DNA of 64,000 bases, taken from positions 288,001-352,000 of the forward strand of contig CBDATS010000005.1 in NCBI GenBank assembly GCA_965200245.1. Direction: 5' to 3'. Source of the DNA: a bacterium. Lineage in GTDB: Bacteria > UBA8248. The notes beneath the pieces were generated by a model. It worked only from the letters and a program-made list of their open reading frames with translations, was not told where the DNA came from and did not search any database. Shown here one piece after another: positions 7,298-59,697 of the stretch. The translations under genes were made by a program, and so were the position numbers. Within the stretch, counting starts at the first letter, position 1. Each line of letters starts with the position of its first letter.

Positions 7298-7930
7298 ATG
7301 AGTGAGTTGAAGGAGCCAATCGTAGTCGTGAAATACTCGGATTACACATGACCTTTTTGCTATGTCGCCACCGTCGGTGGCACGCCCGTGATTGAGAAAG
7401 ACCCCGACGTCGTAGTCGAGTGGGTTAGTTGGGAAGGGAGACCCCCTGGCCAGGAGTTCGCCGGCTACTCACCGGAGCAGAAACAGGAAAATTACGATAA
7501 TAATCACAAACCTCTCGCCGAGAAATACAACGTGCCCATCCGGTTAGCGGGAGGCGACTACCGCACGACCAATCTCCACATGGCCACTTATTATGCGCGG
7601 GACAAGGGGAAGTTCAAGGAGTTTCGGGATCGCTGCTATAAGGCCCGCTGGGAAGATGACCTAAACCTCGAAGACCTGGACGTCATCGCCGGGCTCGGTG
7701 AGGACGTGGGCCTGGACGGCGAGGAAATCAAAAGCGTCATTGCCGAGGGACGCTACATCGGCGCGTTGCACAGCCAGCGTGCGCAAGGGAAAAGCCTCGG
7801 TATCTTCGGCATCCCCACGTTTGTAGTGGAAGGGAAGCTCTTTTGGGGCAAAGACGTCATCGACGACGTTAAGGTCGAGGTTGCCCGTGTGAAACAAGAG
7901 CGGATCGCCAAGGAAAAAGAAGGGAACTGA
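7298..7930 (+). CDS. DsbA/FrnE-family thiol oxidoreductase, predicted selenoprotein (Sec18, UPFC)
   Basis: SD GGAGG 7286-7290, ATG 7298, KYSDYT-TGA(7349-7351)-PFCY in frame with ORF 7388..7930; cis-Pro loop GIPTF; hairpin 7367-7381. Confidence 0.85.
7367..7381 (+). promoter_or_regulatory. Candidate bacterial SECIS hairpin
   Basis: GCCACC-GTC-GGTGGC; G-initiated loop 21 nt after UGA. Confidence 0.65.
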
Positions 7931-7970
7931 CCCACGCTGCCGGTAGCTCGTTCGTTCACAAGGAGAAACG

Positions 7971-8001
7971 AAACACCCTGCCTGTCAGGCGGGGTGTTTT
8001 T
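7971..8001 (+). terminator. Rho-independent terminator
   Basis: AAACACCCTGCCTG-T-CAGGCGGGGTGTTT followed by T-run, just after the DsbA-like gene. Confidence 0.75.
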
Positions 8002-8078
8002 CGCTTGCCTTTTTGCCCTTTCATCCCAGATTCGATAAGGTGCGCGTTCTGCGTTCCCTATTTTGAGGAGAAAACCCG

Positions 8079-9671
8079 ATGGCGCAATTCGATGGCATCG
8101 TGATCGGTGCGGGACATAATGGCTTGGTCTGTGCGGCGTATCTCGCTCGGGCGGGGCTCAAAATCGCCGTACTGGATTGCGAACCGGAAATCGGCGGCGG
8201 CGCAAGCACCAAGGAATTCCTGCTACCCGGCTACCAATCGAACATGCACGCGAATTTCTTCATCGGTCTCGACGATTTCCCAATCGTCCAGGACCTGGAA
8301 CTGAACAAATGCGGATTCAAGTGGCTCACGCCGGACGTGCAGCACGCTGCCTTGTACCGCGACGGAACGGCTATTTTGCTGCACCGCGACTCAGAAAAGA
8401 GCGCCGCCTCTATCTCGAAATTTTCACAGAAAGATGCCGAATCATACGTCTACCTCCACCGGCGATTCGCCGTGGAACTCGCTCCCCTGATGCGCAGTTT
8501 CCTGTTTCATCCGCCGCTCCCACCAGATGAAGTCGCCTCCCGGATGATGGACAGCGATGAGGGCCGGGAAATATTTAGCTTTGCGAAGATGTCGATTTTC
8601 GAGGCCATCGAATCTCATTTCGAGCATCCCAAAATGCGGGCCCTGTTCTTCCTGTTCTCTCACGCCATCACCGTGGAGAACGCACCCGGCACGGGCATTT
8701 TTCTCCCGAGCCTCTTCTCCACCCACACGACGCTCGGCCTTCCCGTAGGAGGGGCAATCCAACTGCCTCTGGCACTCGAGCGCATCGTTACTCAAAACAG
8801 AGGCGTCGTCCTGAGAAACAGCCTCGTGCGTGAGGTGATACGTGAAAACGGGCGCGCGGCAGGTGTGATGCTCGACAATGGCGAGAAGATGTTCGCGACG
8901 CAATTCGTCACCTCCAGCCTCAACGCGCCTGCATCCATCAAATTGGCGGGAGAAGACGCCTTTCCCGATGAAGTGAACGAAAAGGTGCGGAATTGGGACT
9001 GGGGATTTCATTCACTCAGCACACTGCATCTCGCCCTCGTAGAACCTCCGCAATATACCGCAGCGAACTTCGACCCGGATGTAGGCAGGGTCTACAACAT
9101 CATTTTCGGCGCGGATTCCGGTGAGGAAATGGCCGCAAACACCGAGGAGCGCAGAAACGGCCTCATTCCGTCGCAACCGATGGGCAACGGCTCTTGCAAC
9201 AGCCAGCACGACCCCTCCTATGCGCCCCCCGGAGGTCACGTCGCCTTCTGGTGGCCGGGCGCACCTTATGAACTCAAAGACGGTCCGCAGAAATGGGATG
9301 AAATAAAGGAAGAATACACTGACCGTCTCGTAGACGAGTGGCGCGGCTACGCTCCGAATCTCACGCCAGACAATGTTCGCGCGGCGAAACTCTACACCCC
9401 ACTCGACATAGAGCGCGGAAACAAGAACATGGTCCGGGGCGGCGTACGCATGGGGGCGTACGTTCCCGAACAACTGGGGATCAACAGGCCCCATCCCCTG
9501 CTCTCCTGCATGCGGACACCTCTGGAAGGATTCTATCTTTGCAGTTCGAGTTGCCAGGGAGGTGGTCTGAACGGAGCACCCGGCTACAACGCTGCCGGCG
9601 TCATCGCGGAAGACCTAGGCATTGAGAAATGGTGGGAGCCGCTTCCTGCTCCCGCGGCACCCGCAGTCTAG
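8079..9671 (+). CDS. Phytoene-dehydrogenase-like FAD-dependent oxidoreductase
   Basis: IGAGHNGLVCAAYLARAG, IGGGA, TPLDIE, RTPLEGFYLCSS..GGG..GAPGYNAA. Confidence 0.8.
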   Translation: MAQFDGIVIGAGHNGLVCAAYLARAGLKIAVLDCEPEIGGGASTKEFLLPGYQSNMHANFFIGLDDFPIVQDLELNKCGFKWLTPDVQHAALYRDGTAILLHRDSEKSAASISKFSQKDAESYVYLHRRFAVELAPLMRSFLFHPPLPPDEVASRMMDSDEGREIFSFAKMSIFEAIESHFEHPKMRALFFLFSHAITVENAPGTGIFLPSLFSTHTTLGLPVGGAIQLPLALERIVTQNRGVVLRNSLVREVIRENGRAAGVMLDNGEKMFATQFVTSSLNAPASIKLAGEDAFPDEVNEKVRNWDWGFHSLSTLHLALVEPPQYTAANFDPDVGRVYNIIFGADSGEEMAANTEERRNGLIPSQPMGNGSCNSQHDPSYAPPGGHVAFWWPGAPYELKDGPQKWDEIKEEYTDRLVDEWRGYAPNLTPDNVRAAKLYTPLDIERGNKNMVRGGVRMGAYVPEQLGINRPHPLLSCMRTPLEGFYLCSSSCQGGGLNGAPGYNAAGVIAEDLGIEKWWEPLPAPAAPAV

Positions 9672-10069
9672 GTCTCTGCACCGGGAATCATCACGACCGC
9701 CTCGATCTCCACGATGTCGTCCTGATTGAGCCTGCTCACTTCTACGATGGTGCGTGTAGGCAGGTTTGGTCCGAAGTATTCCTCATACAGTCTGTTGATT
9801 GTCGGGCGATGGGCATCCATTTCCCTCACATAGACGATGGTGGAAACGAAGGTGGCGAGCGACCCGCCCGCCGCTTCCGAAATGGCTTTCAGGTTTTCGA
9901 AAGTTCTTCTGGCTCGCGCTTCTATGGTTCTCTCGACGAGTTTCCCCGTATTAGGGTCGATCCCGCGCTGGCCAGCGATGAACAACAGATTCCCCACCCG
10001 GCGCGCCTGCACGAAAGGTCCGGTAGGCGAAGGTGCCAGATCCGTCTGTATGGTTTGAGGGGATTCCAA
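9668..10069 (-). CDS. RidA/YjgF family protein
   Basis: PTGPFVQA, LFIAGQ, YEEYF...PTRT, VEIEAV. Confidence 0.85.
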   Translation of the reverse strand: MESPQTIQTDLAPSPTGPFVQARRVGNLLFIAGQRGIDPNTGKLVERTIEARARRTFENLKAISEAAGGSLATFVSTIVYVREMDAHRPTINRLYEEYFGPNLPTRTIVEVSRLNQDDIVEIEAVVMIPGAET

Positions 10070-10134
10070 GGCGTTATCCCGGTTGAAAAGCAGAAAACAG
10101 GCTGTCGGCTCATGTTTTCCGCCGCGTGGCTGCG

Positions 10135-10359
10135 CTATTTTTTCTTACCCTTGGGTAATTCTGCCGGAAAAGCGATTTTGAGCCACTGCTGCGTCAGTAT
10201 CGTTGCAGCGTTCTCGTCTTTTCCAGGAATGAACGCGATAGGCTCTTTGGGCTGGATACCTTCCTGATCGAGCATATAGATGTCGACTCCGAATCCGTAT
10301 AGATCATGTTCACGAGTTTCAAGATTGTATTTCACCCCATTGTTCGTCAATTGGTTCAT
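10135..10359 (-). CDS. Small hypothetical protein
   Basis: ATG at 10359 after purine-rich SD-like stretch; protein-like composition; no recognised motif. Confidence 0.45.
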   Translation of the reverse strand: MNQLTNNGVKYNLETREHDLYGFGVDIYMLDQEGIQPKEPIAFIPGKDENAATILTQQWLKIAFPAELPKGKKK

Positions 10360-10519
10360 ATGCACTCGTCCTTTCAAGCTCACTGGCGAAAACCGGACCT
10401 TAAAGGTTCCAAACTGCCGCTATCATAGCTGATGGTTTGATCCGCAGTAAAGTTTGGAAACTGTATCGAACATATCCGTTCTTGACCCCGCATGGGGGCT
10501 ATGATAAACGCAAAAACCT

Positions 10520-10594
10520 GGGCCGTTAGCTCAGTGGTAGAGCGCTGCCTTCACACGGCAGAAGTCACTGGTTCAAGTCCAGTACGGCCCACCA
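10520..10594 (+). tRNA. tRNA-Val(CAC)
   Basis: Acceptor stem GGGCCGT/ACGGCCC + ACCA, D-arm AGCTCAGTGGTAGAGC, anticodon arm CTGCC-TTCACAC-GGCAG, GGTTCAAGTCC T-arm. Confidence 0.97.
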
Positions 10595-10596
10595 AC

Positions 10597-10899
10597 TCAT
10601 CCTTCCGAAAGCCTGCACGAGCAGGACACCTCCCGCCAAAGGATTCTTCCATATTGCCTCATAGCTGGACGCCGTTTCGCGCCCACGATCTTCGGCAAAG
10701 AAAGTGCGTTTTCTTCATCGGGCGTGTAGCAAGTTATCAAACCTGCTTTCTCGCTTCTGAAGAGGACGTCACCATCGGCGTGACCCACCACCCGAGAGCC
10801 ACGAGTGTCGGCCTGCAATTCTCCTGAAACATACAACCTCTTCGTCTCGATGAATCGATTTACAAGAGAAAAAACTCCCTTGAGGATCCGTATGCTCAC
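10597..10899 (-). pseudogene. Hypothetical ORF; N-terminal half resembles a degenerate IspF
   Basis: GTG overlaps priA stop (GTGA); MSIRI...VNRFIETKRLYVSG...VVGHADGDVLF resembles IspF MRIG.G.DVH.F.E...L.LGG...GHSDGDV. Confidence 0.3.
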
Positions 10900-13469
10900 A
10901 TCAGATTCAACGGGTCCACATCCACCGCCAGGAGAACGGAAGAAAAGGCCGCCTGCCCATCAAACTCGGAAGTGAGCGTTTTGAGTACCTCTCCCAAGCG
11001 TTTCGAATTCCTGGCCTTCAGGAGCATGTGATACCGCCATACATCGCGAATTCTCATAATTGGCGCAGGTGCTGGCCCCAAGTATTCAATCTCGTTTGTA
11101 CCTGTTACGCTCCCAGCGGCTTCTGCTCTGCGTCTCCTCAAAAAAGAAGCCGCCCATTCAGCGGCTTTCGAGGCGATACACTGGTTTTTCGACTCGAAAC
11201 GCAACCTCGCCAGACGCCGATACGGTGGGTAGCCCATTCGCTCTCTCGCCAGAGCTTCTCGCCTGTAAAACTCAGCGTAATCATGCTCGCGTGCACATTG
11301 AACCGCAAAGTGATCCGGCCTGAAGGTCTGAATGATGACCTCTCCGGACAGATTTGCGCGACCCGCCCGGCCAGCCACCTGAGTGAGTAGCTGAAAAGTG
11401 CGCTCACTTGCCCTGAAATCAGGCAGATGAAGTCCAACATCGGCCACCAAGACGCCCACAAGAGTGAGTTTCGGGAAATCATGGCCTTTCGTCACCATCT
11501 GCGTTCCGATGAGCACGTCAATATCTCCGCTACGCATTGCCCTGAAAACCCTCTCGTATGCAACCGCCCGGCGTACCGCGTCGCGATCCAGACGCTGTAT
11601 GCGAGCCTGCGGGAATCGCGCCTTTACTGCTTGTTCCACGCGCTCGGTTCCCACGCCGAAGTAACCCACCCGATCGCTTTCGCATGAGGAACATCTGTTT
11701 GGTGGATGCGCGCCGAAATCGCACCAGTGGCATTGCACCCTGCTTCCGCCTTCGCGGTGAAAAGTCAGCGGGATGGAGCAGTGAGGACACTGAAGCGCCT
11801 TGCCACAGTCGCGGCACAGAATGACCGAGGAGAACCCTCGCCGGTTCAGGAACAACAGCGTCTGCTCACCTCGCTCCAGACGTTCGCCGATGGCCGCCGT
11901 CAAATCGCGCGTCAAGAGTTCCGGCGTCTTGGGGTCGGAGCTTACTTCTTTTCTCAAATCCACAAGCCGTACCTGCGGCAAGGTTCCGCCAGTGGGCCGG
12001 CGAGACAACGAGTGCAGGCGGTAGCGACCGCTTCTGGCACTCGTGTAACTTTCAATCGACGGCGTAGCCGAACCCAACACGATCGGAATTCCCAGACTCT
12101 TGGCGCGCATGATTCCGGTATCCCGCGCGTGGTAACGAGGGGATTCACCCTGCTTGTAGGAACCGTCGTGCTCCTCGTCTACCGCGATCATTCCCAGGTT
12201 CGGGATCGGGGCAAAGACGGCAGACCTCGTGCCCACGACGATAGGTGCATTCCCGTTCTTGATGCGCCACCACTCCGAGAGGCGCTTTTTATCCGAATAG
12301 GCACTGTGCAAGCAGGCCACCAGCCCTCCGAATCGCCCCTGAAACCGTCCCAAAAGCTGGGGAGTCAGCCCGATTTCGGGCACGAGAACCAACGTGCCCA
12401 ATCCGTTGGCAAGAGCTTCTTGCGCAAGCCGAATGTAGACTTCCGTCTTTCCGCTTCCCGTGACGCCGTGAAGAAGCGTAACTGAAAATTTCTTTTGCTC
12501 GATGTCCGCTTTCACCAACTCCACAAATTCTTTCTGCTCATCCGTAAGTTCCATAGGGGGTGCATCGTGTCTCGGACTCAGTTCATTCACATTCTCCGTA
12601 TCGGGGAGAAGGTCTTCTACTATTCTGACCCATCCTTTTTTCTCCAAAGCAGCGCAAGCGGTGCGCGCGCTTCTCGAATGACCTTCCAACTCCGACAGTC
12701 GAATTCGTCCACCTTCAGCCTGGTTCAAAAGAAGCAGGATATCCACCTGCCGCTTCGCTCGTTTTTCTAGATTCTCAAGCTCATTTCCTTCAGGCATCTT
12801 GTGAAGATGCGCGAATTTAACCTTTCTGGGCTTGGCATCACCTACGATGTCGACGTATCTCTCCACAAAGCCCGAATCGATGAGACGCATGAGTTCAGGA
12901 TGCGTTCCGCGGCCGAACGGCGCTGTAAGCGAACCGATGGTTCTCGGACCCATGCGAAGCGCAACCAAAATGCGCGCCTTGTGACTCCCCTCTGCTTGTG
13001 AGGTTTCGAGGCCGGGCAAGCCGAGACCACCTTCCTCGAGCACGGCTTCTCGCCTCCCTGATTCGGTAAGTCGATAGCGCTCTACGGTTTTTTTCTCCTT
13101 GTGGGACGGAAGCGCAGATTTAAGCGCCTCCCCCCAGCCGCAACAATAGTATTCCGCCACCCATCTCGTGAGTTCCAGAAGTTCCTGGGTGAGCAGTGGC
13201 TCGTCATCAAGAATCTCCAGAACAGGTCTGATAGACGCAGGCTCGACTCCGGGAGGCGGGCTCTCGACCAGCGGATGGACAACGTATCCCGTCACTTTTC
13301 TCTTGCCCAGAGGCGCCAGCACGCGCAACCCGGGCACAAGCCGGTCCACGAAATCAGGTTCCACCCGGTAGATTAAGGTTCGAAGTTGCGGGACGCTGAG
13401 TGCAACCTCGACATACAGGCTGCCCGGTTCGTGCGCCTTGGGGGTATCTTTCTTGATGACGTATTTCAC
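10896..13469 (-). CDS. priA: Primosomal protein N'
   Basis: GVTGSGKTEVY, LVPEIGLTPQ, DEEH, four CxxC pairs, GTQMVTKGHDF, PDFRASER, DVDP C-terminus. Confidence 0.97.
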   Translation of the reverse strand: MKYVIKKDTPKAHEPGSLYVEVALSVPQLRTLIYRVEPDFVDRLVPGLRVLAPLGKRKVTGYVVHPLVESPPPGVEPASIRPVLEILDDEPLLTQELLELTRWVAEYYCCGWGEALKSALPSHKEKKTVERYRLTESGRREAVLEEGGLGLPGLETSQAEGSHKARILVALRMGPRTIGSLTAPFGRGTHPELMRLIDSGFVERYVDIVGDAKPRKVKFAHLHKMPEGNELENLEKRAKRQVDILLLLNQAEGGRIRLSELEGHSRSARTACAALEKKGWVRIVEDLLPDTENVNELSPRHDAPPMELTDEQKEFVELVKADIEQKKFSVTLLHGVTGSGKTEVYIRLAQEALANGLGTLVLVPEIGLTPQLLGRFQGRFGGLVACLHSAYSDKKRLSEWWRIKNGNAPIVVGTRSAVFAPIPNLGMIAVDEEHDGSYKQGESPRYHARDTGIMRAKSLGIPIVLGSATPSIESYTSARSGRYRLHSLSRRPTGGTLPQVRLVDLRKEVSSDPKTPELLTRDLTAAIGERLERGEQTLLFLNRRGFSSVILCRDCGKALQCPHCSIPLTFHREGGSRVQCHWCDFGAHPPNRCSSCESDRVGYFGVGTERVEQAVKARFPQARIQRLDRDAVRRAVAYERVFRAMRSGDIDVLIGTQMVTKGHDFPKLTLVGVLVADVGLHLPDFRASERTFQLLTQVAGRAGRANLSGEVIIQTFRPDHFAVQCAREHDYAEFYRREALARERMGYPPYRRLARLRFESKNQCIASKAAEWAASFLRRRRAEAAGSVTGTNEIEYLGPAPAPIMRIRDVWRYHMLLKARNSKRLGEVLKTLTSEFDGQAAFSSVLLAVDVDPLNLM

Positions 13470-14434
13470 GGAAGAGGCGTCCCGCCACTCAGGATGATAT
13501 GGAGATGCTCACTGGTGAGATTGCGTCCACTCAGGATTCCAGCGACGCGCTTGCCTGACAAGCCCATTTTTATGGCGGCGGCCATCGGAGCGGCACCTGC
13601 TCCTTCGGCGATGACGTGTGCCTCCGAGATGTACAGACGGATGGCATCGCACATTTCCTCTTCGCTTACCACCACGATTTCATCCACGTATTGCCTGATC
13701 ATCTCGAAAGAGAGTTCATAGGGCACCCGTGTGGCAAGTCCGTCTGCAAAGGTATCCGCCGAAGGCTGGGGCAGTAATTCCCCCGCGTAGAAACTCTTGT
13801 AGAAGGCAGGGGCCTTTTCCGCCTGTACCCCCACCACGTGAACCCTGGGGTTGACATGCTTGGCGACGAGACCCGCACCGCACACACCGCTCCCTCCGCC
13901 AAGGGGAACTATGATGACTTCGATATCCGGTTCCGATTCCATGATCTCGAGTGTCTGGGTCGCCACGCCCGCTATGAGGCGTGGCTCGTTGGCAGAGTGA
14001 ACGTAGCGCATGCCGCGCGCTTCGCATTGCTCTTCACACCATACTCTGGCGTCGTCGAAGTCCTTGCCCACGAACGCAACTTCCGCTCCCAACCTTTCGA
14101 TGGCTGCAATTTTATCCGGATTCGCTCCATTCGGCGCTGCGATCAACGCCCTGACCCCGAAAATCCGCGCGGCGTAGGCGATGGACTGGCCGTGGTTCCC
14201 AGTCGATGCCGTGATGAGGCCCGCTTGTTTCTCTGACGACTCGAGTTGAGAGACAAGATTTACGCCACCGCGAACCTTGAACGCACCTATGGGCTGCATG
14301 GATTCGAATTTCAGGAAATACCGGCATCCGAGCCGTTCGGAGAGTACGGGAACTTCGTGAAAGGGCGTAGGCTGCAGGTAGGCGGCGATTCGTTTTCGCG
14401 CCTCCAGTACATCGTCGAACGTGGGCTCGCGCAT
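13466..14434 (-). CDS. Threonine/serine dehydratase (PLP-dependent, no regulatory domain)
   Basis: GAFKVRG PLP lysine, STGNHGQ, PLGGGSG, AEGAGAA, LSGRN. Confidence 0.9.
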   Translation of the reverse strand: MREPTFDDVLEARKRIAAYLQPTPFHEVPVLSERLGCRYFLKFESMQPIGAFKVRGGVNLVSQLESSEKQAGLITASTGNHGQSIAYAARIFGVRALIAAPNGANPDKIAAIERLGAEVAFVGKDFDDARVWCEEQCEARGMRYVHSANEPRLIAGVATQTLEIMESEPDIEVIIVPLGGGSGVCGAGLVAKHVNPRVHVVGVQAEKAPAFYKSFYAGELLPQPSADTFADGLATRVPYELSFEMIRQYVDEIVVVSEEEMCDAIRLYISEAHVIAEGAGAAPMAAAIKMGLSGKRVAGILSGRNLTSEHLHIILSGGTPLP

Positions 14435-14614
14435 TGTTCCTCCAGCGGTGGGCGCATCGCATCCACTTATAGCAAATTTTATTTTCCAGAGAGTGGCCTC
14501 ATTATGAGAAAATACGATGTTTTGCTATCCAGTTGAAAATATGTGCATTACATCCTCATCAGGCGGCGCGGGCGGAGGGGCTCTCAAATTCGGTTTCGCC
14601 TGAAGGCGTGGATG

Positions 14615-14643
14615 TTGACCCCCTCCGCCTCCCAACCTAGAAT
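14615..14643 (+). promoter_or_regulatory. Sigma70 promoter
   Basis: TTGACC-17nt-TAGAAT, about 45 nt upstream of ATG 14687. Confidence 0.65.
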
Positions 14644-14686
14644 GCCACAGTCGACACAAATCATCACACAACCGTGGAGGTTGAGC

Positions 14687-15016
14687 ATGAAGAGCGCACT
14701 GGAAATCGCAATGGAGAAAACTTCCGCCTTCGGAGAGCAAGCGCGCCAGGAACTGGAAAAACTCAGCCCCGAGCAAAGAAGAAAAATAGAGGAAATCAAG
14801 AAGGTATACGAGGGGAAAATTGCAGAAAAAGATGTTCTCCATCAGCAGGAACTGATGAAAATGACGGGCGGCACTCCGCCTGAAGCGATTGAGGCACAAC
14901 TCGAACCCGAGGCGAAAAATGCACTAAACGTTTTTCGCCAGAAATTCAGAAGCGAACGCGAGGCGCTTGAGGCGGAGCGCGAGGAGAAGATAGAAGCCAT
15001 CAAAAAGGAAAGTTAG
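14687..15016 (+). CDS. Hypothetical coiled-coil protein (MKSALEIAMEK type)
   Basis: SD GGAGG, E/K-rich helical sequence, 6 bp from next gene. Confidence 0.7.
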   Translation: MKSALEIAMEKTSAFGEQARQELEKLSPEQRRKIEEIKKVYEGKIAEKDVLHQQELMKMTGGTPPEAIEAQLEPEAKNALNVFRQKFRSEREALEAEREEKIEAIKKES

Positions 15017-15022
15017 GCGCAT

Positions 15023-15994
15023 ATGAGCCGCGTTGCGATTGTCCGTTGTGATGATTACGACAAAGAGCGAGTGAGCGACGCCGTATCCGAGGTGTTGGAA
15101 GCGTTGGGCGGAGCTTCGCAATTTACCTCTGCAACCGATGATATTCTGCTCAAACCCAACATCCTGAAAGGCGCGCCACCCGAGAGTGCGCTCACGACAC
15201 ACCCTGAAATACTCCGGGCGTTGGCGCAGCAGTTCCAAAAGCTGGCGGCTGCGCCCCGAAAAATTTCCATGGGCGACAGCCCCGCCTGGGGGAGCCTTGC
15301 TTCCTGCTCCAAAGAAGCCGGTTTGTCGAGGGTATGCAAAGAACTGGACATTCCCATCGTGCCTTTCCGAAAAGGCGTGAAGATTCCCAATCCCGACGGA
15401 GTCGTCTATACGCATCTCACAATGGCCAAAGAGGCCATGGACGCGGACGGCATCATCAACCTGCCCAAACTCAAGACCCATTGCCAGCTTCACATGACGG
15501 GCGCAGTCAAGAACCTCTTCGGCTGTGTGGCTGGGAAAAGGAAGGCTTGGTGGCATTTCAAGGCGGGGACATACGAGGATTATTTTCCGCTTATGCTCGT
15601 TGAAACGGCGAGGCTGCTCAGGACGAAACTCTCCGTTCTGGATGCCGTCATCGCGATGGAAGGCCAGGGTCCCGCACAGGGAACTCCCCGCCGGGTGGGC
15701 CTCATCCTGGCGAGCATCGACCCGGTGGCACTCGACCGTGTCGCCTGTGAGGTAACGGGACTCTCGCCCGAGAAACTGAAGACCCTGGAAGCCGCCCGCG
15801 TAACAGGCTTCGGCGAGACGGATCTGGACCAGATTGAAGTAGCAGGATTGCCTCTTGAGGAGGCGAAGATATCCGAACCACTAGTCGAGCCGAGGATGAT
15901 TCCGACAGGTTTCAGCATTCCACGCGTCGTAAAGAGCACGTTGAAACAACAGTGGCTCACACGCGTGCGCGAACCTCTCCACAAAGTTTCCTGA
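15023..15994 (+). CDS. DUF362 domain protein
   Basis: LLKPN, TTHP, INLPKLKTH, TGAVKNLFG, MEGQGP, DPVALD. Confidence 0.85.
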   Translation: MSRVAIVRCDDYDKERVSDAVSEVLEALGGASQFTSATDDILLKPNILKGAPPESALTTHPEILRALAQQFQKLAAAPRKISMGDSPAWGSLASCSKEAGLSRVCKELDIPIVPFRKGVKIPNPDGVVYTHLTMAKEAMDADGIINLPKLKTHCQLHMTGAVKNLFGCVAGKRKAWWHFKAGTYEDYFPLMLVETARLLRTKLSVLDAVIAMEGQGPAQGTPRRVGLILASIDPVALDRVACEVTGLSPEKLKTLEAARVTGFGETDLDQIEVAGLPLEEAKISEPLVEPRMIPTGFSIPRVVKSTLKQQWLTRVREPLHKVS

Positions 15995-16007
15995 ATACCA
16001 GCGCAGG

Positions 16008-16781
16008 TTAGATGTTCGATCGGCTCTGCGAGCCGTCCACGTTCCAGCACGCCCCATGCACTAGGCTTGCTCTCGGGCTCACCATGAAGACTGCCACGGC
16101 GGAGAGTTCCTCCGGGCGGCCGAAGCGGCCCAACGGCATTTCGGCATCAATAAAGCCCTTGAGTCCATCGGACGCCTCGCCTATCCGCCGCTCCCATACC
16201 CCACCGGGGAAAAGGATGCTACCCGGTGCAATCGAGTTCACGCGGATGTTGTCCTTCGCCGTCTGCTGGGCAAGGCCCTTGGAAAAACTGATGAGCGCCG
16301 CCTTGGAGGCATTATACGTCATCGCACCCTTCGATTCTCGACCATAGATGGAGGCGACGTTCAGGATGGAACCGCCACCCCTTTTTTTCATCTCCGGTAT
16401 CACGAGACGTGAGAGTGTGACGGCATGATAGAGGTTGAAATCAAATCCTTCGCGCCACTCCTCGTCCGTGATGTCGAGAAACGCCTTGGGATTGCTGCCA
16501 CCCACGTTGTTCACGAGTATATCGACGCCACAGAACGCATCAATCGTCCTATGCAAAAAAGCGTCGGGCACGCCCGGTTCGGTAACGTCGCCCATGAAAC
16601 CCGCCGCGCTGCCGCCACCCAGCGCGTTCAGTTCATCGACCGCCTGGTTCAAGCGCTCTTCGCCCCGCGCACTGATCGCCACGTGACAGCCCTCGACCAC
16701 CAGATCCTTCGCGATATGGAAGCCAAGACCCCGACTGCCGCCCGAGATCATCGCCACCTTGTCAGTGAGCATCAAATCCAT
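16008..16781 (-). CDS. Short-chain dehydrogenase/reductase
   Basis: SGGSRGLG, LVNNVG, YNASK, NSIAPG. Confidence 0.9.
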   Translation of the reverse strand: MDLMLTDKVAMISGGSRGLGFHIAKDLVVEGCHVAISARGEERLNQAVDELNALGGGSAAGFMGDVTEPGVPDAFLHRTIDAFCGVDILVNNVGGSNPKAFLDITDEEWREGFDFNLYHAVTLSRLVIPEMKKRGGGSILNVASIYGRESKGAMTYNASKAALISFSKGLAQQTAKDNIRVNSIAPGSILFPGGVWERRIGEASDGLKGFIDAEMPLGRFGRPEELSAVAVFMVSPRASLVHGACWNVDGSQSRSNI

Positions 16782-16827
16782 CGTATTCCCTTCCGAAAGC
16801 GCAGGATAACGTCCTCGCGCGACGCCC

Positions 16828-18012
16828 TTACGTGGGCTGGTCCAGCGTCTGGGCGGCACGCAACAGTGTCATTGAGTCCGTCCCGTCACCGTGCAGGAAA
16901 GTGAGGAGGTCGCGCATCATCTTCTCCGTCGGCGTCTCTTTCATGATGCCGATCCCGCCGAGAATGTCCGTGGCGAAGGCGATCGTCTTGAGCGCCACCT
17001 GATCGCTGAACACCTTGCCGTACCGTGTGAAGCGCGTGTTGTAACTCTCGTCGTTCTCCACGCCCCAGCAGATACGCCACATGAACTGCTCTGCCACCTC
17101 GATGTTCATCAGCATTTCGGCCAGTTGGTGCTGTATCGTCTGGTGTTCGATGATGGGTTTGCCACCCTGAACGCGTTCTTTCGCGTGCTGGAGGCAGAAA
17201 TTGTAAATACCGCGCGCGATGCCCGTATTGCACGCCGGAAGTTCGGCACTGCCCCGGAACACCGTGGCGAACGTATGAAATCCCTTGTTGACCTCTCCCA
17301 GAATGTCATCCTTGTGAACACGCACGTTGTTGTAGTAGCTCTCGGCATTGGGATACAGCCTGTAGCCGAGTTTGTCGTGCACATTGCCGTAGGAGACGCC
17401 CTCCTGATCCCCGTGCACGAGAAAGCAGGTAGTCCCCTGATGAACTGGCACATTGGGGTCTGTTCTCGCAAAAACCAGCAGAATCTTGGCCCAACTCGTG
17501 AGCGACGTGAACCGTTTTGCTCCGTTGAGCACAAAATAATCGCCGTCCTGCACCGCCGATGTCTTGAGGCCCAGTGCAGGGTCGTTCTGCCGGTAGATGT
17601 TGTCTGAACCGTAATCCGGCTCGGTAATCACGAACGAGCCGACGCAATCATGGTCTTCCACAAACATTTTGCCCCATTTTTCGAGTATCGCTTCCGATCC
17701 GCATTTGAAGATCGCATTCGATACCTTCCAGCACTGGCTCAGGCACTTGATAACGCCGATCTCGATTTGAGCACCCGTCCAGAGACAAAGGGCCTTGGTC
17801 GTCGTGTCGGCCCCGATGCCACCATACTCCTCGGGAACCGCCATAGTACGGAGGCCTAGATGCGACGCCTTGTTGAGAAGCGCACCCGGATAGCAATCCC
17901 TGGGGTCGGGTCGACGATCCATTTCCGCGGCGACGGGCGCGACTTCACGCTCCATGAAATCCCGGGTCAGATCGGCAAGTGCCAGTTGTTCATCGGTAAA
18001 AGGATATTGCAT
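16828..18012 (-). CDS. Acyl-CoA dehydrogenase family protein
   Basis: VPEEYGG, TEPDYGSD, LNGAKRF, KLGYR, RVQGGKPI, LGGIG. Confidence 0.9.
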   Translation of the reverse strand: MQYPFTDEQLALADLTRDFMEREVAPVAAEMDRRPDPRDCYPGALLNKASHLGLRTMAVPEEYGGIGADTTTKALCLWTGAQIEIGVIKCLSQCWKVSNAIFKCGSEAILEKWGKMFVEDHDCVGSFVITEPDYGSDNIYRQNDPALGLKTSAVQDGDYFVLNGAKRFTSLTSWAKILLVFARTDPNVPVHQGTTCFLVHGDQEGVSYGNVHDKLGYRLYPNAESYYNNVRVHKDDILGEVNKGFHTFATVFRGSAELPACNTGIARGIYNFCLQHAKERVQGGKPIIEHQTIQHQLAEMLMNIEVAEQFMWRICWGVENDESYNTRFTRYGKVFSDQVALKTIAFATDILGGIGIMKETPTEKMMRDLLTFLHGDGTDSMTLLRAAQTLDQPT

Positions 18013-18119
18013 AACTCCTCCAAGTCATTGAGAAGAATTTTCCATATTCAATCCATATTCTCTGGTTATCCTCTCGCGCCCGTGGTGTCAACTTCAAGAC
18101 GCAATGGCTCTCACTACTC

Positions 18120-19787: not shown

Positions 19788-19802
19788 GACTCCTCCCCTG
19801 CA

Positions 19803-20492: not shown

Positions 20493-20610
20493 GCACAATT
20501 CCCGTTCATGAGCGAGCAGATGAGCTATCCTGCGAAATAAAGCATAATAGGGTATTCTAGCGGTTCGGCAAAGGCGAAAGGCGTGTTTCCCACAACCGGA
20601 GGATCGGACG

Positions 20611-22818: not shown

Positions 22819-23502
22819 TCACCTCGCCGCTCTCGCCAGGATCTCGCGGTAACCGGCGTAAACCGCCTCCCCGTAGGCGGGCGGGGCGTGGACTTCGGTG
22901 AGCTTGCCACCCTCTATCGTCTTATCCGAAGCGTAGGGATTGAAAACCGCTTCCCCGCCCGGGAGCATGAGGGTGGGACTCGTCATCGGAAGGCCTTCCT
23001 CATCTCGCAAGCGCATGGCCTCTCTGTAGTCATCCATCACGCCTTCTTCGTATGCGCCCGATCCCAGGTCAGCGCGAACACCGGAGGCATCAAGGCCCGT
23101 CTCTTCGGCCATCTCGCATAGCACCGTATCCTCATCAACGCGCTTGCCCTCATAGAAAAAACCTCGCCGAATCTTGAGATCGTAGACGCGCGCCTTTTCC
23201 GGGTCCTGTGCATATGCGCTCGCATAAGCCTGATAGGCACGCAGCGTGGTGCGCAGATATTCTTCGTGAGGCCAGCTTCTGCACGGAGAAAGCGGCTCCT
23301 GAACGGCTATCAGGGGCCATTCCTGATCCACGATGTGGCGCGGTGCCGGGCGATCATTGATGATCTCCAGCGGAAACGCGCGCCATTTGAGATGCAGCCT
23401 GCCCTCGAACTCGGGAATCACCTTGTCCAGCCGCGCCGCGGCCATGTACGCCCAAGGTCAGTGATATTCGTGAAAAATCTCGACAACTGCCGTATCCGCC
23501 AT
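22819..23502 (-). CDS. DsbA/FrnE-family protein, predicted selenoprotein (Sec15, UPWA)
   Basis: SD GAGGG, ATG 23502, VEIFHEYH-TGA(23460-23458)-PWAY in frame with ORF 22819..23445; WRAFPL and TSPT cis-Pro loop; hairpin 23421-23457. Confidence 0.8.
23421..23457 (-). promoter_or_regulatory. Candidate bacterial SECIS hairpin
   Basis: Lower stem CCTTG/CAAGG directly after UGA, upper stem GCCGC-GGC-GCGGC, loop 20 nt after UGA. Confidence 0.6.
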
Positions 23503-26246: not shown

Positions 26247-26768
26247 ATGAAGCGAACCCTTATCTGCATAGTCGCCGTCGCAATTCTCGCCGCGTTCTGG
26301 ACGTTCCACCAGGTCGGCGCAGCGGGACTCGGACCGGGCGCGCGCGCACCCGAACTCAGGGGCGGTCCCTGGCTAGGCGGTGAACCCTTGAAACTCGCCG
26401 ACCTGCGTGGCAAGGTCGTTCTGATCGACATGTGGACGTTCGCCTGAATCAATTGCGTGCGGGAGATCCCCACGCTGCGTTCGTGGCACGAACGCTACAA
26501 GGACAAGGGGCTGGTCGTCATCGGAAACCACGCACCCGAGTTTGACTTCGACAGGAAAAAAGAAAACGTCGCAGACGCCATGGCCAAACTCGGCATCAAA
26601 TACCGCGTCGTGCTGGACAACGATTTCACCAACTGGGACGCCTTCAAGAATCGCTTCTGGCCGACGAAATACCTGATCGACAAAAAAGGCATCGTGCGCT
26701 TCAAGACGATCGGCGAGGGTAACCACGCACGCACCGAGGCGCTCATCGTGAAGCTGCTCGCAGAGTGA
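26247..26768 (+). CDS. Exported TlpA/DipZ-like redoxin, predicted selenoprotein (Sec67, UINC)
   Basis: ORFs 26235..26447 and 26457..26768 share one frame joined by TGA 26445-26447: LRGKVVLIDMWTFA-U-INCVREIP; HAPEF, WPTKYLIDKKG; N-terminal hydrophobic signal; hairpin 26455-26475. Confidence 0.88.
26455..26475 (+). promoter_or_regulatory. Candidate bacterial SECIS hairpin
   Basis: GCGTG(c)GGG-AGAT-CCC-CACGC, loop 16 nt after UGA with G at second position. Confidence 0.55.
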
Positions 26769-55665: not shown

Positions 55666-55670
55666 CGTTT

Positions 55671-57191: not shown

Positions 57192-57245
57192 ATCCTCTCA
57201 ATACGGCAAAAAACGCTTATCCTGCGAAAACTCGGAACAACCCGC

Positions 57246-58772
57246 TCAGGACGCCTCCCTGTCCAGCAGTTTGAACCCGAAGGCGAAAAACAGGATTGCC
57301 ATGAACAGATAACCGGCGGCTATGCCGGGCGCCGCCCCCCAACCGAAGAAGCTGACGACACCACCGGGCGTGATCCGCCAGGCGTGGATGACCCCGAACC
57401 AGCTCAATACCGCTCCGGCCAACGCCCACCCTCCCGCCTGTTTCGGCTCCTTGTCGAGAAGTTTCGCAACGATGGCTGTCAGGATGACTGACGTGAAAAG
57501 AAAGCCGCGCTCCAGGGTGACCATACCCACGAGATGGAATCCCGCCTTGGCAAACGCTTCCTCTCCCACCTTCCACAAGCTCGTGCCCGCTCCCCTCAGG
57601 GAGGATTCCACCATCAGCAGACCCCACGCGGCGATGGCGGGTATCAAGCCGATCACTACAGCCGGACCGTGGCGCGCAGGTGAAGCCTGAAACGCCTGGG
57701 TGAGCATCATCACCCCGATCCAGAGCATGAGTGCGAAGAGCGCATCACCGGGGATGATCTTCGAAAGTGCCGCAATCGAACCGGTGAAGCACAGAACCGT
57801 CATCACGACCCCGTTCAAGGCACTGTAACCTGCGCGGGCACCCATCTTCTTCCAACCCGGATGTCCTATATATATGGTTGTTGGAAAACAACTCCCCAGA
57901 CATGCCGCAAGCAGCGAGCCCGCGCCATTCACCGCCAGGGAACTGCTCGTCTCGTAATCATCGCCCGCGGCAGCTGCGCTTTCCAGACACATCAGGCTGC
58001 CCACCAGCGTCATCAGACCCATGGGAATGGAAACCGCGAGGTAATCCCAAGCCAGCGGACCGAAGAGAGCATCAAACAAAGGACCAAAGGCGGAAGATGG
58101 AATCGCAAGACCCACAGGCGCGGGAATTCCTTCCGGAAATCCCTTGACGATGGCGGACAAAACCACTCCCGCCGCCACCGCCACGAGGCCGCCCGGCAAT
58201 CCGAAAGGAAAGCGGAACCCGCCGAAATAATGGACGAGGATGATCCCCAAGGGAATCATGGCGACAAGCGGGTGCTCCCAGATTCTGAAGGCGAAATCCA
58301 TCGAGATAAACGTGAGCGCGATGCCTCCCAAAGCCGAGAGCAAAGCGGTACGCGGCGCGACCCGCCTGATATGCTTACCCAACAGCGAACCCGCCGTTTC
58401 GATTATCCCGCTCACAAAACAGGCCGCCAGACCCGCCTGCCAGGCCGCCTCGGCGCTTCCGGTCTTGAGTTTCACGGGCAGCATCACGAAAAAGATGAAC
58501 GCGAAAAGTGTGACCGTGTTGATACCGTAGGGCATGGCGGTTACATCGTCCCGGTCCTCGCGCACAGCCAGGCGCCGCGCCTGCCAGGTGTAGAAGAGGT
58601 TCCCGCCCAGAAGACTCAGGGCCGCTGCAGGCAGCACGCGCGCGAAGATGAGTGAATCGGGAAAACCCAGCAGCCCTTTCAGGAAACTCACTATCAACAG
58701 AAGATTAATTAGGTTGTCCATCCACAGGCCAAAGAAGCCGTCGACGTCACCCTTCACGAACCATTTGGGCAT
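57246..58772 (-). CDS. NCS2/AzgA-like nucleobase permease
   Basis: GDVDGFFG, TAMPYGIN, ESAAAAGD.Y, PTTIYIGHPG.K.MGAR.GY; many TM helices. Confidence 0.8.
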   Translation of the reverse strand: MPKWFVKGDVDGFFGLWMDNLINLLLIVSFLKGLLGFPDSLIFARVLPAAALSLLGGNLFYTWQARRLAVREDRDDVTAMPYGINTVTLFAFIFFVMLPVKLKTGSAEAAWQAGLAACFVSGIIETAGSLLGKHIRRVAPRTALLSALGGIALTFISMDFAFRIWEHPLVAMIPLGIILVHYFGGFRFPFGLPGGLVAVAAGVVLSAIVKGFPEGIPAPVGLAIPSSAFGPLFDALFGPLAWDYLAVSIPMGLMTLVGSLMCLESAAAAGDDYETSSSLAVNGAGSLLAACLGSCFPTTIYIGHPGWKKMGARAGYSALNGVVMTVLCFTGSIAALSKIIPGDALFALMLWIGVMMLTQAFQASPARHGPAVVIGLIPAIAAWGLLMVESSLRGAGTSLWKVGEEAFAKAGFHLVGMVTLERGFLFTSVILTAIVAKLLDKEPKQAGGWALAGAVLSWFGVIHAWRITPGGVVSFFGWGAAPGIAAGYLFMAILFFAFGFKLLDREAS

Positions 58773-58944
58773 CCGGGTCCCCCTGCTCAAGACCGGCAAG
58801 TTCCAACCGAGCGCGACTCGTCCAGGATAGTAATACACGCTGCCTGATTCGCCAAAACACCCAGGCCTTTTTCTCAACCCGGTCGTTTTGATATGCTCTA
58901 TTCATAAACAAATAACCCTTTAGCGATCACCAGGGAGAAAAGCG

Positions 58945-59697
58945 ATGGAAGCTGTCAAAGTCTACACGCGGCACGGTTGATATACCTGCGCACTTACGAG
59001 AGAGTTTCTCTCGTCCAATGGCCTTGAAGTCTTAAACCGCGACTGCACGAACGATGCCGAAGCACAGGCCGAACTCAAGGAGCTTGGCATCAAGGCCCTG
59101 CCTGTCGCCGTTCGAGGTGAGAATGTGGTGGTGGGCTATGATGTGGACGCGCTCCGCGAGGCTTTCGACATCGAACAGGAAGGCACAGGCCCCCTCTCGC
59201 CCGAAAAGATGCTCCACTATTTCGAGATGGTCTTTGACGCACTGCGCCGCGTCGTTCGCCAGATACCGCACGAAACGCTCAACTGGGTATCTCCGGGCAG
59301 GCCCCGCACGCTGCGCCAACTCACCTGGCACAGCTTCGAACGTCCCGATATCGTGATGCAGACCTTTGCAACGGGCGAATACACCGAGGGGATGGTGCGC
59401 CGCTACGAGACGCTAGCGAACGACTACAACACCACAGAAGACATTTGCGCCTACGGCGATGAAATACAGGCGAAGCTCACCGATTTTCTCACCGCAGGCC
59501 GCGAGGCGCTGGCACAGAAGGTGTCGAGCTACATGGGACCCATCACCGTACATGAGTTGATGATTCTCGCACTTGGGCACGCCTTCCAGCATCTGCGGCA
59601 AACCTATCATTATTTTGAAATGCTGGAGATTACGCCGGAAAATCCTCTAGAGCCCGAGGACTACGCAGAGGTGCCCGTGCCCAAGGATCTGTTCTAG
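58945..59697 (+). CDS. Glutaredoxin/NrdH-like (Sec12, UYTC) - DinB domain fusion, predicted selenoprotein
   Basis: SD GGGAG, ATG 58945, VKVYTRHG-TGA(58978-58980)-YTC..TREFL...G.KALPV....VVGYD in frame with ORF 59125..59697; DinB motif LTWH...HAFQH. Confidence 0.85.
58996..59014 (+). promoter_or_regulatory. Candidate bacterial SECIS hairpin
   Basis: Perfect 8-bp stem ACGAGAGA-GTT-TCTCTCGT, G-initiated loop 23 nt after UGA. Confidence 0.7.

Follow-up and report, generated by a model that had tools for sequence, protein, structure and literature searches.

Four probable selenoprotein genes with in-frame UGA at thioredoxin-fold active sites in 64 kb of a UBA8248 genome

The window analyzed here, i.e., a 64,000-nt stretch of contig CBDATS010000005.1 from a bacterium of the UBA8248 lineage (assembly GCA_965200245.1), contains four genes, hereafter s1–s4, in which an in-frame TGA stands at the first Cys of a thioredoxin-fold motif. 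An earlier, sequence-only reading had pointed to these four TGAs (7349, 23460, 26445 and 58978), each in a gene with its own start and Shine–Dalgarno (SD) sequence, and all four were as described: purine-rich SD-like stretches precede the starts of s1 (GGAGG), s2 (GAGGG), s3 (GGAGAA) and s4 (GGGAGAA). The coordinates of that reading were kept, with one change of strand, as s2 lies on the minus strand. Its description of the four loci as unrelated had to be dropped, however: s1 as well as s2 has a Pfam DSBA match, even though the two share only 19% identity (BLASTP E 0.42). In a read-through scan, only the s1–s4 sites passed the filter within a span of 52 kb; a fifth candidate, at position 19805 of the window, proved to be an ordinary stop that separates QueC from a flavoprotein gene.

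The first gene, s1 (7298..7930, + strand; 210 aa), starts at ATG 7298 and stops at TGA 7928-7930. Its product, for which no signal peptide was seen, matches Pfam DSBA over residues 10-192 (9.9e-27, 94.4 bits vs a cut-off of 25.6), and the predicted selenocysteine (Sec) codon UGA (7349..7351, + strand; residue 18, YT-U-PFC) aligns with the first Cys of the CPWC motif of FrnE (5cp1, E 1.7e-13). It carries the UxxC motif of DsbA-like selenoprotein form 1 (PF01323) and resembles both that form and FrnE of Deinococcus radiodurans (PDB 5cp1/5cnw), a relative with Cys. It would work in the cytoplasm, via U-P-F-C, as a disulfide oxidoreductase or isomerase of the FrnE/DsbA type. A SECIS-like hairpin, GCCACC-GUC-GGUGGC (7367..7381, + strand; 6-bp stem, triloop, −8.9 kcal/mol), places its loop 21 nt past the UGA. 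One TGA was found in each of 46/46 site-covering matches from 44 genomes, and it is invariant among 42 aligned sequences. The stem is paired in 98.7% of 228 cells, vs 26–69% when the 3′ partners are slid by 1–3 columns; entropy at third codon positions is 0.22 within the stem vs 1.10 elsewhere, and the third base of the loop is free to vary (G22 C6 T5 A5).

The second DsbA/FrnE-like gene, s2 (22819..23502, − strand; 227 aa, ATG at 23502, stop TGA 22821-22819), has its UGA at 23458..23460 (− strand; residue 15, YH-U-PWA). As in s1, the match to Pfam DSBA (8.5e-14, 52.2 bits vs a cut-off of 25.6) takes in most of that domain, and the first Cys of FrnE CPWC aligns to U (E 1.3e-8), as in DsbA-like selenoprotein form 1. 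Each of the 41/41 site-covering ortholog matches has one TGA, and TGA and P-W-A are both invariant in 40 aligned sequences, with no second Cys in the motif. Since U-P-W-A is found in 40/40 aligned orthologs, s2 has the DsbA fold yet falls outside the UxxC form of such selenoproteins, and it differs from the DsbA-like forms in lacking a resolving Cys in the motif: PMC13188914 gives DsbA-like selenoproteins as a predicted family (Table 1), with the forms UxxC (form 1) and DxxUP (form 2). With its one selenol, this FrnE/DsbA-like protein would, by inference, act by forming a mixed selenenylsulfide with the thiol of a partner, not via an internal disulfide. The s2 hairpin (23427..23445, − strand; −8.4 kcal/mol) consists of a core, GCCGC-GGC-GCGGC (23430-23442), and a G-U/U-G/C-G extension, with the loop beginning 20 nt past the UGA. 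Its stem is paired in 91.1% of 304 cells, the 5-bp core is unbroken (4 pairs invariant, one GC or GU), and synonymous sites have an entropy of 0.00 within the stem vs 0.90 elsewhere.

The third gene, s3 (26247..26768, + strand; 173 aa, stop TGA 26766-26768), starts at ATG 26247 and has a hydrophobic N-terminal leader; genes for a cytochrome b561 and a molybdopterin oxidoreductase follow directly downstream. The s3 UGA (26445..26447, + strand; residue 67, FA-U-INC) aligns, within U-I-N-C, to CINC of Mycobacterium tuberculosis DipZ (2hyx, E 1.6e-42). The motif falls inside residues 32-152, and both Pfam AhpC-TSA (3.8e-13, 49.9 bits vs a cut-off of 26) and Redoxin (3.5e-11, 43.5 bits vs 26.6) score above their cut-offs, as in the Prx-like thiol:disulfide oxidoreductase/Redoxin selenoproteins (PF00578, PF08534), whose domain likewise spans UxxC. 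The product would be a secreted DipZ/ResA/TlpA-like reductase: it has a secretion leader like ResA and TlpA but, unlike DipZ, stands alone at 173 aa without a membrane domain, and it scored below the cut-offs of the ResA, TlpA, DsbE and WAxxUGC selenoprotein models. All 37/37 orthologs have one TGA, invariant in their alignment. The hairpin recognized earlier, hairpin a (GCGUG(C)GGG-AGAU-CCCCACGC; 26455..26475, + strand; one bulged C, −12.1 kcal/mol; loop 16 nt past the UGA), is present, but a second one had been missed, hairpin b (GCGUUCGU-GGC-ACGAACGC; 26477..26495, + strand; triloop, −10.0 kcal/mol; loop 37 nt past the UGA), and this is the better conserved of the two candidate SECIS hairpins. 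In hairpin a, pair 21/33 is G-C in 24 and C-G in 10 sequences (RNAalifold), the lower stem is broken in 3–6 of 37 sequences, and the AGAU loop is a poorer fit to the SECIS consensus; in hairpin b, seven pairs are kept in 36–37 of 37 sequences, and pair 42/54 is C-G in 21, U-G in 13 and U-A in 2.

The fourth gene, s4 (58945..59697, + strand; 250 aa, ATG 58945, stop TAG 59695-59697), encodes a fusion of a glutaredoxin (Grx) with a DinB/YfiT four-helix bundle. Pfam Glutaredoxin covers residues 4-56 (3.7e-8, 33.9 bits vs a cut-off of 22.9) and DinB_2 residues 93-219 (1.1e-6, 29.5 bits vs 24.8), while the scores for the YruB, NrdH and Uxx-star models fall below cut-off. The N-terminal 75 residues match cGrx1 (7c10, E 2e-11; fold TM 0.87 on target), and U-Y-T-C aligns with its CPHC, the U (UGA 58978..58980, + strand; residue 12, HG-U-YTC) standing at the first Cys. 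An AF2 model of the protein (pLDDT 91.2) retrieved DR0053 (6iz2), YfiT (1rxq) and the M. tuberculosis mycothiol S-transferase (8f5v) with Foldseek at probability 1.00, the C-terminal domain adopting the DinB fold (TM 0.83 on DR0053). H129, H212 and H216 are invariant among 20 sequences and, by analogy with this fold, are probable metal ligands. The protein would thus combine a glutaredoxin with a DinB/YfiT-type metal-binding domain, a kind of domain that includes low-molecular-weight-thiol S-transferases. Its halves resemble, respectively, the selenoprotein glutaredoxin of Clostridium oremlandii (PF00462), with UxxC near the N-terminus, and the thiol S-transferases Bacillus subtilis YfiT (1rxq) and M. 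tuberculosis mycothiol S-transferase (8f5v); unlike either, s4 joins both domains in one 250-aa protein. The TGA occurs once in 39/39 site-covering matches, is invariant in the alignment of 39, and stands at codon 12 in 18/18 full-length named loci. The hairpin, ACGAGAGA-GUU-UCUCUCGU (58996..59014, + strand; 8 bp, triloop, −9.6 kcal/mol), has its loop 23 nt past the UGA and is paired in 95.7% of 304 cells. Two pairs change on both sides in a lower-GC genus (C-G to U-A and G-C to A-U; 5 cells), and among 500 shuffles none reached the paired percentage and 7 the covariation score.

Next, we evaluated the hairpins as a group. Those proposed earlier, with loops GUC, GGC, AGAU and GUU lying 16–23 nt past the UGA, are all present (21, 20, 16 and 23 nt for s1, s2, s3 and s4). 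Scoring only unbulged hairpins within published bSECIS limits and at −7.5 kcal/mol or better, we detected one at 4/4 window sites vs 33/600 ordinary TGA stops (5.5%) and 39/600 random sense positions (6.5%) of the same genome, i.e., beyond chance. Under the same strict, unbulged scan, a qualifying hairpin was found at only 18/31 predicted Sec sites genome-wide; at the terminal TGAs of the window genes, none qualified for s1 and s2, and that of s3 had a chance hairpin (−8.1 kcal/mol). Folding energies over 63 nt were not unusual for composition (z = 0.72, 1.78, −2.07 and −0.63 for s1–s4, mononucleotide shuffles). In the orthologs, synonymous positions change little in the stems, whereas the wobble base of the loop varies, and compensatory changes are seen for s4 and for each of the two s3 hairpins. 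The aligned s1 and s2 orthologs displayed no two-sided covariation because these stems hardly vary, and their conservation could come partly from the conserved peptides A-T-V-G-G and A-A-A-R-L. The window hairpins resemble the consensus bacterial SECIS (bSECISearch; E. coli fdhF prototype) in loop size (3–4 nt), G within the first two loop positions, stem (5–8 bp), spacing (16–37 nt) and energy (−7.5 kcal/mol or better). The Fig. 2 legend of PMC13188914 gives 3-nt G[G/U]N loops, stems of ≥4 bp and 16–37 nt spacing, and nothing categorical sets the window hairpins apart: the triloops are at the short end of the loop range and s3 hairpin b, at 37 nt, reaches the maximum spacing. The suggestion of a new, compact G-triloop SECIS type is therefore not supported, as the hairpins fit the published consensus and other Sec sites of this genome use 4–6 nt loops, e.g., GGUC.

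The Sec machinery, which the sequence-only reading had found missing from the window and proposed to look for elsewhere, is complete and lies on other contigs. A tRNA-Sec scored 75.9 bits vs a cut-off of 47, with anticodon TCA (ARAGORN), and profile scores were 572.7 bits for selA, 391.9 bits for selB and 338.6 bits for selD, the last with an in-frame TGA (Sec) of its own. Across 44 genomes of the order, selB was above cut-off in 41 and selA in 42, single-contig genomes among them. The assembly has 15 contigs and an estimated contamination of 8.1%; an objection based on contamination or on the separate contigs is answered by single-contig relatives, which carry the machinery and all four TGA-bearing genes on the same chromosome. 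The position of the TGA is, as had been proposed, occupied by Cys in the solved homologs FrnE, DipZ and cGrx1.

Reading frames, TGA conservation, Cys homologs, hairpins and machinery are direct observations of this analysis, and the last four support the UGA-Sec recoding by SelB/SECIS suggested earlier; Sec insertion itself, the choice between the two s3 hairpins and the substrates are what we infer. We estimate a probability of roughly 0.93 that s1–s4 are selenoprotein genes whose internal UGA is read as Sec. SelB·GTP·Sec-tRNA(Sec), recruited by a short coding-sequence hairpin 16–37 nt downstream (a bacterial SECIS), would decode the UGA, and Sec would replace the nucleophilic first Cys of each thioredoxin-fold active site.

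A conserved UGA could also serve another role, either as the stop of a leader peptide followed by an internal start or as a site of read-through by a near-cognate tRNA inserting Cys or Trp. Downstream starts do exist (GTG 7388 in s1, ATG 23445 in s2, GTG 26457 in s3 and GTG 59125 in s4) and gene callers adopt them, but the stretch ahead of the TGA makes up the first thioredoxin-fold strand and can be aligned with solved homologs, a product from the downstream start would have no active site and, for s4, no Grx domain at all, and the hairpins and Sec machinery would be left unexplained; we consider this quite improbable. Even less credible is that the TGAs are nonsense mutations, pseudogene features or assembly errors in dead or truncated genes. 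The assembly is of metagenome type and contaminated at the level given above, and odd TGAs do occur in the genome, since two other genes have one in a Pfam domain away from any redox motif (L241 and L258). The comparative sequences already contradict this explanation, though: in the ortholog set (44 genomes of the same order, 37–42 aligned sequences per gene), every site-covering ortholog keeps the TGA, i.e., 37–42 independently assembled relatives per gene share the identical codon with the frame intact on both sides, at protein identities down to 52–63%, and the protein sequence is conserved on either side of the TGA within Pfam domains that span it. Two DNA runs gave neither TGC nor TGT (over 7200-27000, 0 other letters), a weak check because one run may be the source of the window DNA. 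RNA-library contigs fall inside s1 (7497-7921) and s3 (26556-26825), with DNA carry-over possible, and none of the pieces listed bridges a TGA. Finally, a genetic code in which TGA means Trp or Gly (table 4 or 25), as two database gene calls of s4 orthologs that read it as W would have it (P0013, P0020), has a negligible chance of being right. The earlier reading had rejected it because TGA is also an ordinary stop here, and this holds: TGA is the commonest stop among 1745 ORFs of ≥350 codons (TGA 849, TAG 530, TAA 366) and the terminator of s1, s2 and s3. In addition, the internal TGAs align to catalytic Cys, not Trp or Gly, and the Sec machinery is complete.

As selenoprotein genes, s1–s4 are part of a large set. 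The organism had been suspected to be selenoprotein-rich, and a scan of the whole 3.68-Mb genome, conservatively counted, gave a minimum of 35 selenoprotein genes: beyond s1–s4, a coding-score scan combined with Pfam yielded 27 candidates, of which three are weak, and family searches 4 more. These are AhpD/CMD-like, DsbA-like, Grx, Prx-like, deiodinase-like, UGSC, OsmC, GrdA, GrdB-like, SelD, Trx-like and ArsC-like proteins and two rhodaneses. Such richness is already in print for the lineage: in Table 2 of the BSepDB paper (2026; PMC13326102), the top ten include MAGs labelled Nitrospinota (GTDB UBA8248) with 48–54 selenoprotein genes, vs our conservative minimum of 35, and isolate FO_M_Nitrospinota_01 has 54. 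The MAGs that yielded the s4 relatives bear the titles Nitrospinota, Nitrospinaceae or Nitrospinae, the labels in that table being Nitrospinota/Nitrospinae, and FO_M_Nitrospinota_01 itself carries an s4 ortholog (locus L162; 65% identical, TGA at codon 12).

Overall, all four genes belong to selenoprotein kinds already listed, and earlier publications cover their families, the SECIS model and how rich the lineage is in selenoproteins. Against NCBIfam selenoprotein models (Rcas_1661, WAxxUGC, Uxx-star and others), the best scores were 32 vs 190, none, 23.1 vs 300 and 38.5 vs 66, all short of the curated cut-off, and neither s1 nor s2 reached the cut-off of any NCBIfam model. Two small novelties, the U-P-W-A DsbA-like form of s2 and the Sec-only glutaredoxin-DinB fusion of s4, are modest leads for enzymology. 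A Cys form of full-length s4 (Grx plus DinB) was not found among 43 database relatives; a text search of two 2026 selenoprotein papers returned "DinB" 0 times, and a literature search for DinB, selenoprotein and glutaredoxin gave only an unrelated E. coli mercury paper. Tentatively, and with the odds rather against it, s4 may represent an undescribed selenoenzyme architecture that exists in the Sec form only, is confined to the Nitrospinota-labelled (UBA8248) lineage and uses its selenol Grx as a built-in partner. If so, the Grx domain with its selenol would supply, within one protein, the redox partner for a thiol-transferase-type domain that depends on metal. Taken with the mono-selenol, U-P-W-A form of s2, the fusion would then indicate chemistry specific to selenium in a lineage that is sponge-associated and no classical anaerobe.

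Apart from the miscalled genes, the finding is confirmatory. Because such genes are mis-called in public data, redox enzymes are under-counted in the proteomes, metabolic models and domain censuses of the lineage, and the redox-enzyme tally of UBA8248, described as sponge-associated, is affected by miscalled selenoprotein genes. The earlier expectation that standard annotation would miss these proteins holds for s4: its gene call on the contig is a 190-aa "DinB" fragment that starts past the TGA and lacks the active-site domain, and 41 of the 43 database relatives are likewise truncated.

All four in-frame TGA codons that the sequence-only reading had claimed as selenocysteine (U, Sec) positions were borne out on reading the sequence, and each of the four genes (s1–s4) has a purine-rich SD-like stretch 6–12 nt 5′ of its start. 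On the forward strand, s1 runs from an ATG at 7298 to a TGA stop at 7928 (210 aa), with the internal TGA at 7349–7351 as residue 18 (Y-T-U-P-F-C); s3, whose N-terminus is a hydrophobic leader, runs from an ATG at 26247 to a TGA stop at 26766 (173 aa; TGA 26445–26447, residue 67, F-A-U-I-N-C), and s4 from an ATG at 58945 to a TAG stop at 59695 (250 aa; TGA 58978–58980, residue 12, H-G-U-Y-T-C). On the reverse strand, s2 extends from an ATG at 23502 to a TGA stop at 22821–22819 (227 aa; TGA 23460–23458, residue 15, Y-H-U-P-W-A). The TGA lies inside a Pfam domain in all four genes: DSBA for s1 and s2 (9.9e-27 and 8.5e-14), AhpC-TSA/Redoxin for s3 (3.8e-13 and 3.5e-11), and Glutaredoxin plus DinB_2 for s4 (3.7e-8 and 1.1e-6). 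Their description as four unrelated loci was slightly overstated because s1 and s2 belong to one family, though they are only 19% identical. Against NCBIfam, including its models for selenoproteins, all four proteins scored below every curated cut-off, which fits the four genes being missed. The s3 stop and the start of a cytochrome b561 gene (26765–27754, +; Ni_hydr_CYTB, 4e-17) overlap, and downstream of the latter comes a molybdopterin oxidoreductase gene (27943–28854, +; Oxidored_molyb, 1.1e-27), a gene context suggesting that the three may form a periplasmic redox module.

Overall, we consider it very probable (roughly 93%) that both the original observation and its main interpretation, Sec recoding at four sites, are right. 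The four genes extend selenoprotein families that were already known; their SECIS elements are canonical, and the lineage had previously been listed as rich in selenoproteins. Families listed in an excerpt of PMC13188914, a 2026 review, include DsbA-like form 1 (UxxC), Grx (UxxC), Prx-like thiol:disulfide oxidoreductase and Redoxin (UxxC).

Comparative data were drawn from searches of each protein against six frames of 44 genomes of the order. Exactly one TGA was present in every match covering the site for s1 (46/46), s2 (41/41) and s4 (39/39), and in all 37 s3 orthologs at ≥60% identity. The few stop-free matches were fragments beginning 3′ of the site, and s3 also has distant paralogs without stops at 28–47% identity. 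When 72 nt around the TGA were aligned from the loci and 40 further regions, T-G-A was invariant in 42 (s1), 40 (s2), 37 (s3) and 39 (s4) sequences, down to 52–63% protein identity; within the species collection, codon 12 of s4 was TGA in 18 of 18 full-length named loci. Reads with TGC or TGT at these sites had been named as evidence against recoding, and across 7200–27000 the window is matched without a difference by two DNA runs from a separate study, a weak check because one run may be the source of the window DNA. A lack of Cys at the TGA position in homologs, likewise named as contrary evidence, was not what we found: phmmer searches against solved structures aligned U to the catalytic Cys of D. 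radiodurans FrnE (CPWC) for s1 (1.7e-13) and s2 (1.3e-8, with Ala in place of the second Cys), of the thioredoxin-like domain of M. tuberculosis DipZ for s3 (CINC, 1.6e-42), and of clostridial cGrx1 for s4 (CPHC, 2e-11).

The genome (3.68 Mb in 15 contigs, 95.8% complete, 8.1% contamination) encodes the complete Sec machinery that the sequence-only reading had proposed to look for: a tRNA-Sec (selC; 75.9 bits, cut-off 47, anticodon TCA by ARAGORN), selA (572.7 bits), full-length selB (391.9 bits) and selD (338.6 bits), the last with one in-frame TGA of its own. As had been stated, none of these lies in the window. Since they sit on other contigs, relatives were examined: of the 44 genomes of the order, 41 have selB and 42 have selA above the respective cut-off, and these include single-contig genomes in which one chromosome also holds all four TGA-bearing genes. 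A genome-wide reassignment of TGA had been discounted from the start, and TGA is indeed an ordinary stop here, ending 849 of 1745 ORFs of ≥350 codons (TAG 530, TAA 366) as well as three of the four genes themselves (s1, s2 and s3).

The hairpins reported 16–23 nt after each TGA, with loops GUC, GGC, AGAU and GUU, were all found. That of s1 (GCCACC-GUC-GGUGGC, 6 bp) has its loop 21 nt from the UGA at −8.9 kcal/mol; that of s2 (GCCGC-GGC-GCGGC, a 5-bp core plus a wobble extension) 20 nt away at −8.4 kcal/mol; and that of s4 (ACGAGAGA-GUU-UCUCUCGU, 8 bp) 23 nt away at −9.6 kcal/mol. For s3, the originally proposed hairpin a has an AGAU loop 16 nt from the UGA and one bulge (−12.1 kcal/mol), and a second candidate, hairpin b (GCGUUCGU-GGC-ACGAACGC, 8 bp), has its loop at 37 nt (−10.0 kcal/mol). 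Counting only unbulged hairpins within published bacterial SECIS (bSECIS) limits and at −7.5 kcal/mol or better, we found one after 4/4 window sites and 18/31 predicted Sec sites genome-wide; among the controls, 33 out of 600 TGA stops and 39 out of 600 sense positions were followed by one. The terminal TGA codons of s1 and s2 lack a qualifying hairpin, whereas one occurs by chance after the terminal TGA of s3 (−8.1 kcal/mol). Whole-segment folding z-scores did not single out the four sites, which are set apart only by their individual hairpins and by comparison among relatives.

Covariation of these hairpins in orthologs, another of the proposed checks, was obtained for s3 and s4 and not for s1 and s2. 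Specifically, two s4 pairs have both partners replaced in a genus of lower GC content (C-G becoming U-A, G-C becoming A-U). In s3 hairpin a, one pair is G-C in 24 and C-G in 10 sequences, and the lower stem is broken in 3–6; hairpin b has one pair that is C-G, U-G or U-A. Hairpin b is kept in 36–37 of 37 sequences, and on these alignments we rate it no lower than hairpin a as a SECIS candidate. Across aligned s1 and s2 orthologs (98.7% and 91.1% paired cells), no pair changed on both sides because the stems hardly vary. The lack of variation still carries information at synonymous sites: entropy at third codon positions was 0.22 in the s1 stem versus 1.10 outside it and 0.00 versus 0.90 for s2, and the wobble base of the s1 loop is free (G22 C6 T5 A5).

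The suggestion of a compact G-triloop SECIS as a new type did not hold. The bSECIS consensus, as excerpted from PMC13188914, comprises a loop of 3–9 nt with G within the first two positions (mostly G[G|U]N), a stem of 4–16 bp, a spacing of 16–37 nt and an energy of −7.5 kcal/mol or better. We reject a new class because the loops GUC, GGC and GUU fit this published pattern exactly, and other Sec sites of the genome have loops of 4–6 nt, such as GGUC (four times), AGGU (twice) and GGAC. A short Grx that is not fused to another domain and has the motif U-P-H-C (L203, G001:C5:122943-123367 in genome and contig handles), from a different family within the order, has a hairpin nearly the same as that of s4 (GAAAGA-GUU-UCUUUC) over a conserved K-E-F-L-S peptide; the Grx SECIS seems to be carried along by a conserved Grx helix.

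The redox proteome had been said to be missed by standard annotation, and for s4 the gene call for its own contig is indeed a 190-aa fragment beginning after the TGA. Among 43 database relatives, 41, this gene call included, are fragments of 154–233 aa that start 3′ of the TGA and are called “DinB family” or left unnamed, and none of the 43 is a Cys form. In the two full-length relatives (proteins P0013 and P0020) the TGA is read as W, i.e., the pipeline’s choice of genetic code conceals the Sec codon. An AlphaFold2 model built from 20 orthologs (pLDDT 91.2, pTM 0.86) matched cGrx1 in its N-terminal domain by Foldseek and, in its C-terminal domain, DR0053, YfiT and the M. tuberculosis mycothiol S-transferase with Zn; residues H129, H212, H216, C15 and C168 are invariant among orthologs. 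By inference, the selenol-Grx domain would partner a metal-dependent domain of the thiol-transferase type. The term “DinB” is absent from the texts of PMC13326102, the paper on the bacterial selenoprotein database BSepDB, and of PMC13188914, and a literature search joining DinB, selenoprotein and glutaredoxin returned an unrelated paper only. Minor novelties would be the Grx-DinB fusion, seen only in Sec form, and the DsbA-like form with U-P-W-A.

The genome-wide scan supports the proposed selenoprotein-rich organism. From 25,482 TGA read-through candidates, a hexamer coding model kept 216, of which 60 were run against Pfam in two batches, one of 30 selected visually for a redox-like setting and one of 30 more; the four window sites and 152 other candidates fell outside these batches. 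The first batch supported 27 of 30: eleven CMD/AhpD-like proteins with CxxU (two just below cut-off, one without a match), four OsmC, three deiodinase-like, two DSBA, two UGSC, and one each of Grx, AhpC-TSA, GrdA, GrdB-like and SelD. In the second batch, which lacked clear redox motifs, none was counted as Sec: 28 were adjacent genes or domains beginning 3′ of the TGA, and in two the domain spans the TGA without a redox motif. These two are a small nucleotidyltransferase (L241, G000:C4:551629-551967, +; TGA at residue 28 within an NTP_transf_2 match at 22–107) and a xanthine/uracil-permease-family gene (L258, G000:C5:468776-470074, +; TGA at residue 100 within a match at 21–391), the latter perhaps a pseudogene, a misassembly or a case of another kind. 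Locus L235 of this batch has only a weak downstream DsrE_2 match, and DsrE (PF02635) has no match in the genome. Family searches added a Trx-like protein (W-U-G-T-C), an ArsC-like protein (U-K-T-C) and two rhodaneses in which U takes the place of the active-site Cys, for a total of at least 35 with the window genes; leaving out the three weak AhpD-like candidates makes it 32. At ~0.6 selenoproteins per 64 kb genome-wide, the window with its four is thus locally enriched. A fifth window site (TGA 19805, −) is not Sec, being the stop of QueC with an FAD-binding (succinate-dehydrogenase-like) gene next in frame, two adjacent genes at 18120–20711 (−) that mimic read-through.

The richness of the lineage is already in print, because BSepDB ranks such MAGs: in the excerpt of PMC13326102 (2026), its top ten includes three UBA8248 MAGs, one labelled Nitrospinota (54 selenoprotein genes), one Nitrospinaceae (50) and one Nitrospinae (48). 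MAGs with titles of this kind are also where relatives of s4 occur, and L162, a BSepDB-listed isolate, has an s4 ortholog with TGA at 65% identity. Two Sec genes of the present genome, a GrdA homolog (L219, G000:C5:575391-575879; 197.9 bits, C-F-V-U) and a GrdB-like protein with U-P-L-C (L218, G000:C4:784641-785567), are of the glycine/betaine-reductase type, unexpected for a Nitrospinota-labelled lineage. Another, DsbA-like with C-Y-V-U-P-Y-A (L215, G000:C5:269385-270044, −), lies 18 kb upstream of the window, placing three DsbA-like Sec genes, with s1 and s2, within about 45 kb.

RNA-library contigs overlap parts of s1 and s3 and were not counted as evidence of expression; among the pieces listed none bridges a TGA, and stretches without RNA cover are uninformative. 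The window also contains tRNA-Val(CAC) at 10520–10594 (+) and tRNA-Asn(GTT) at 29571–29645 (+), and the tRNA-Val is a point where contigs from other runs break off or fork (loose ends, 10526–10568).
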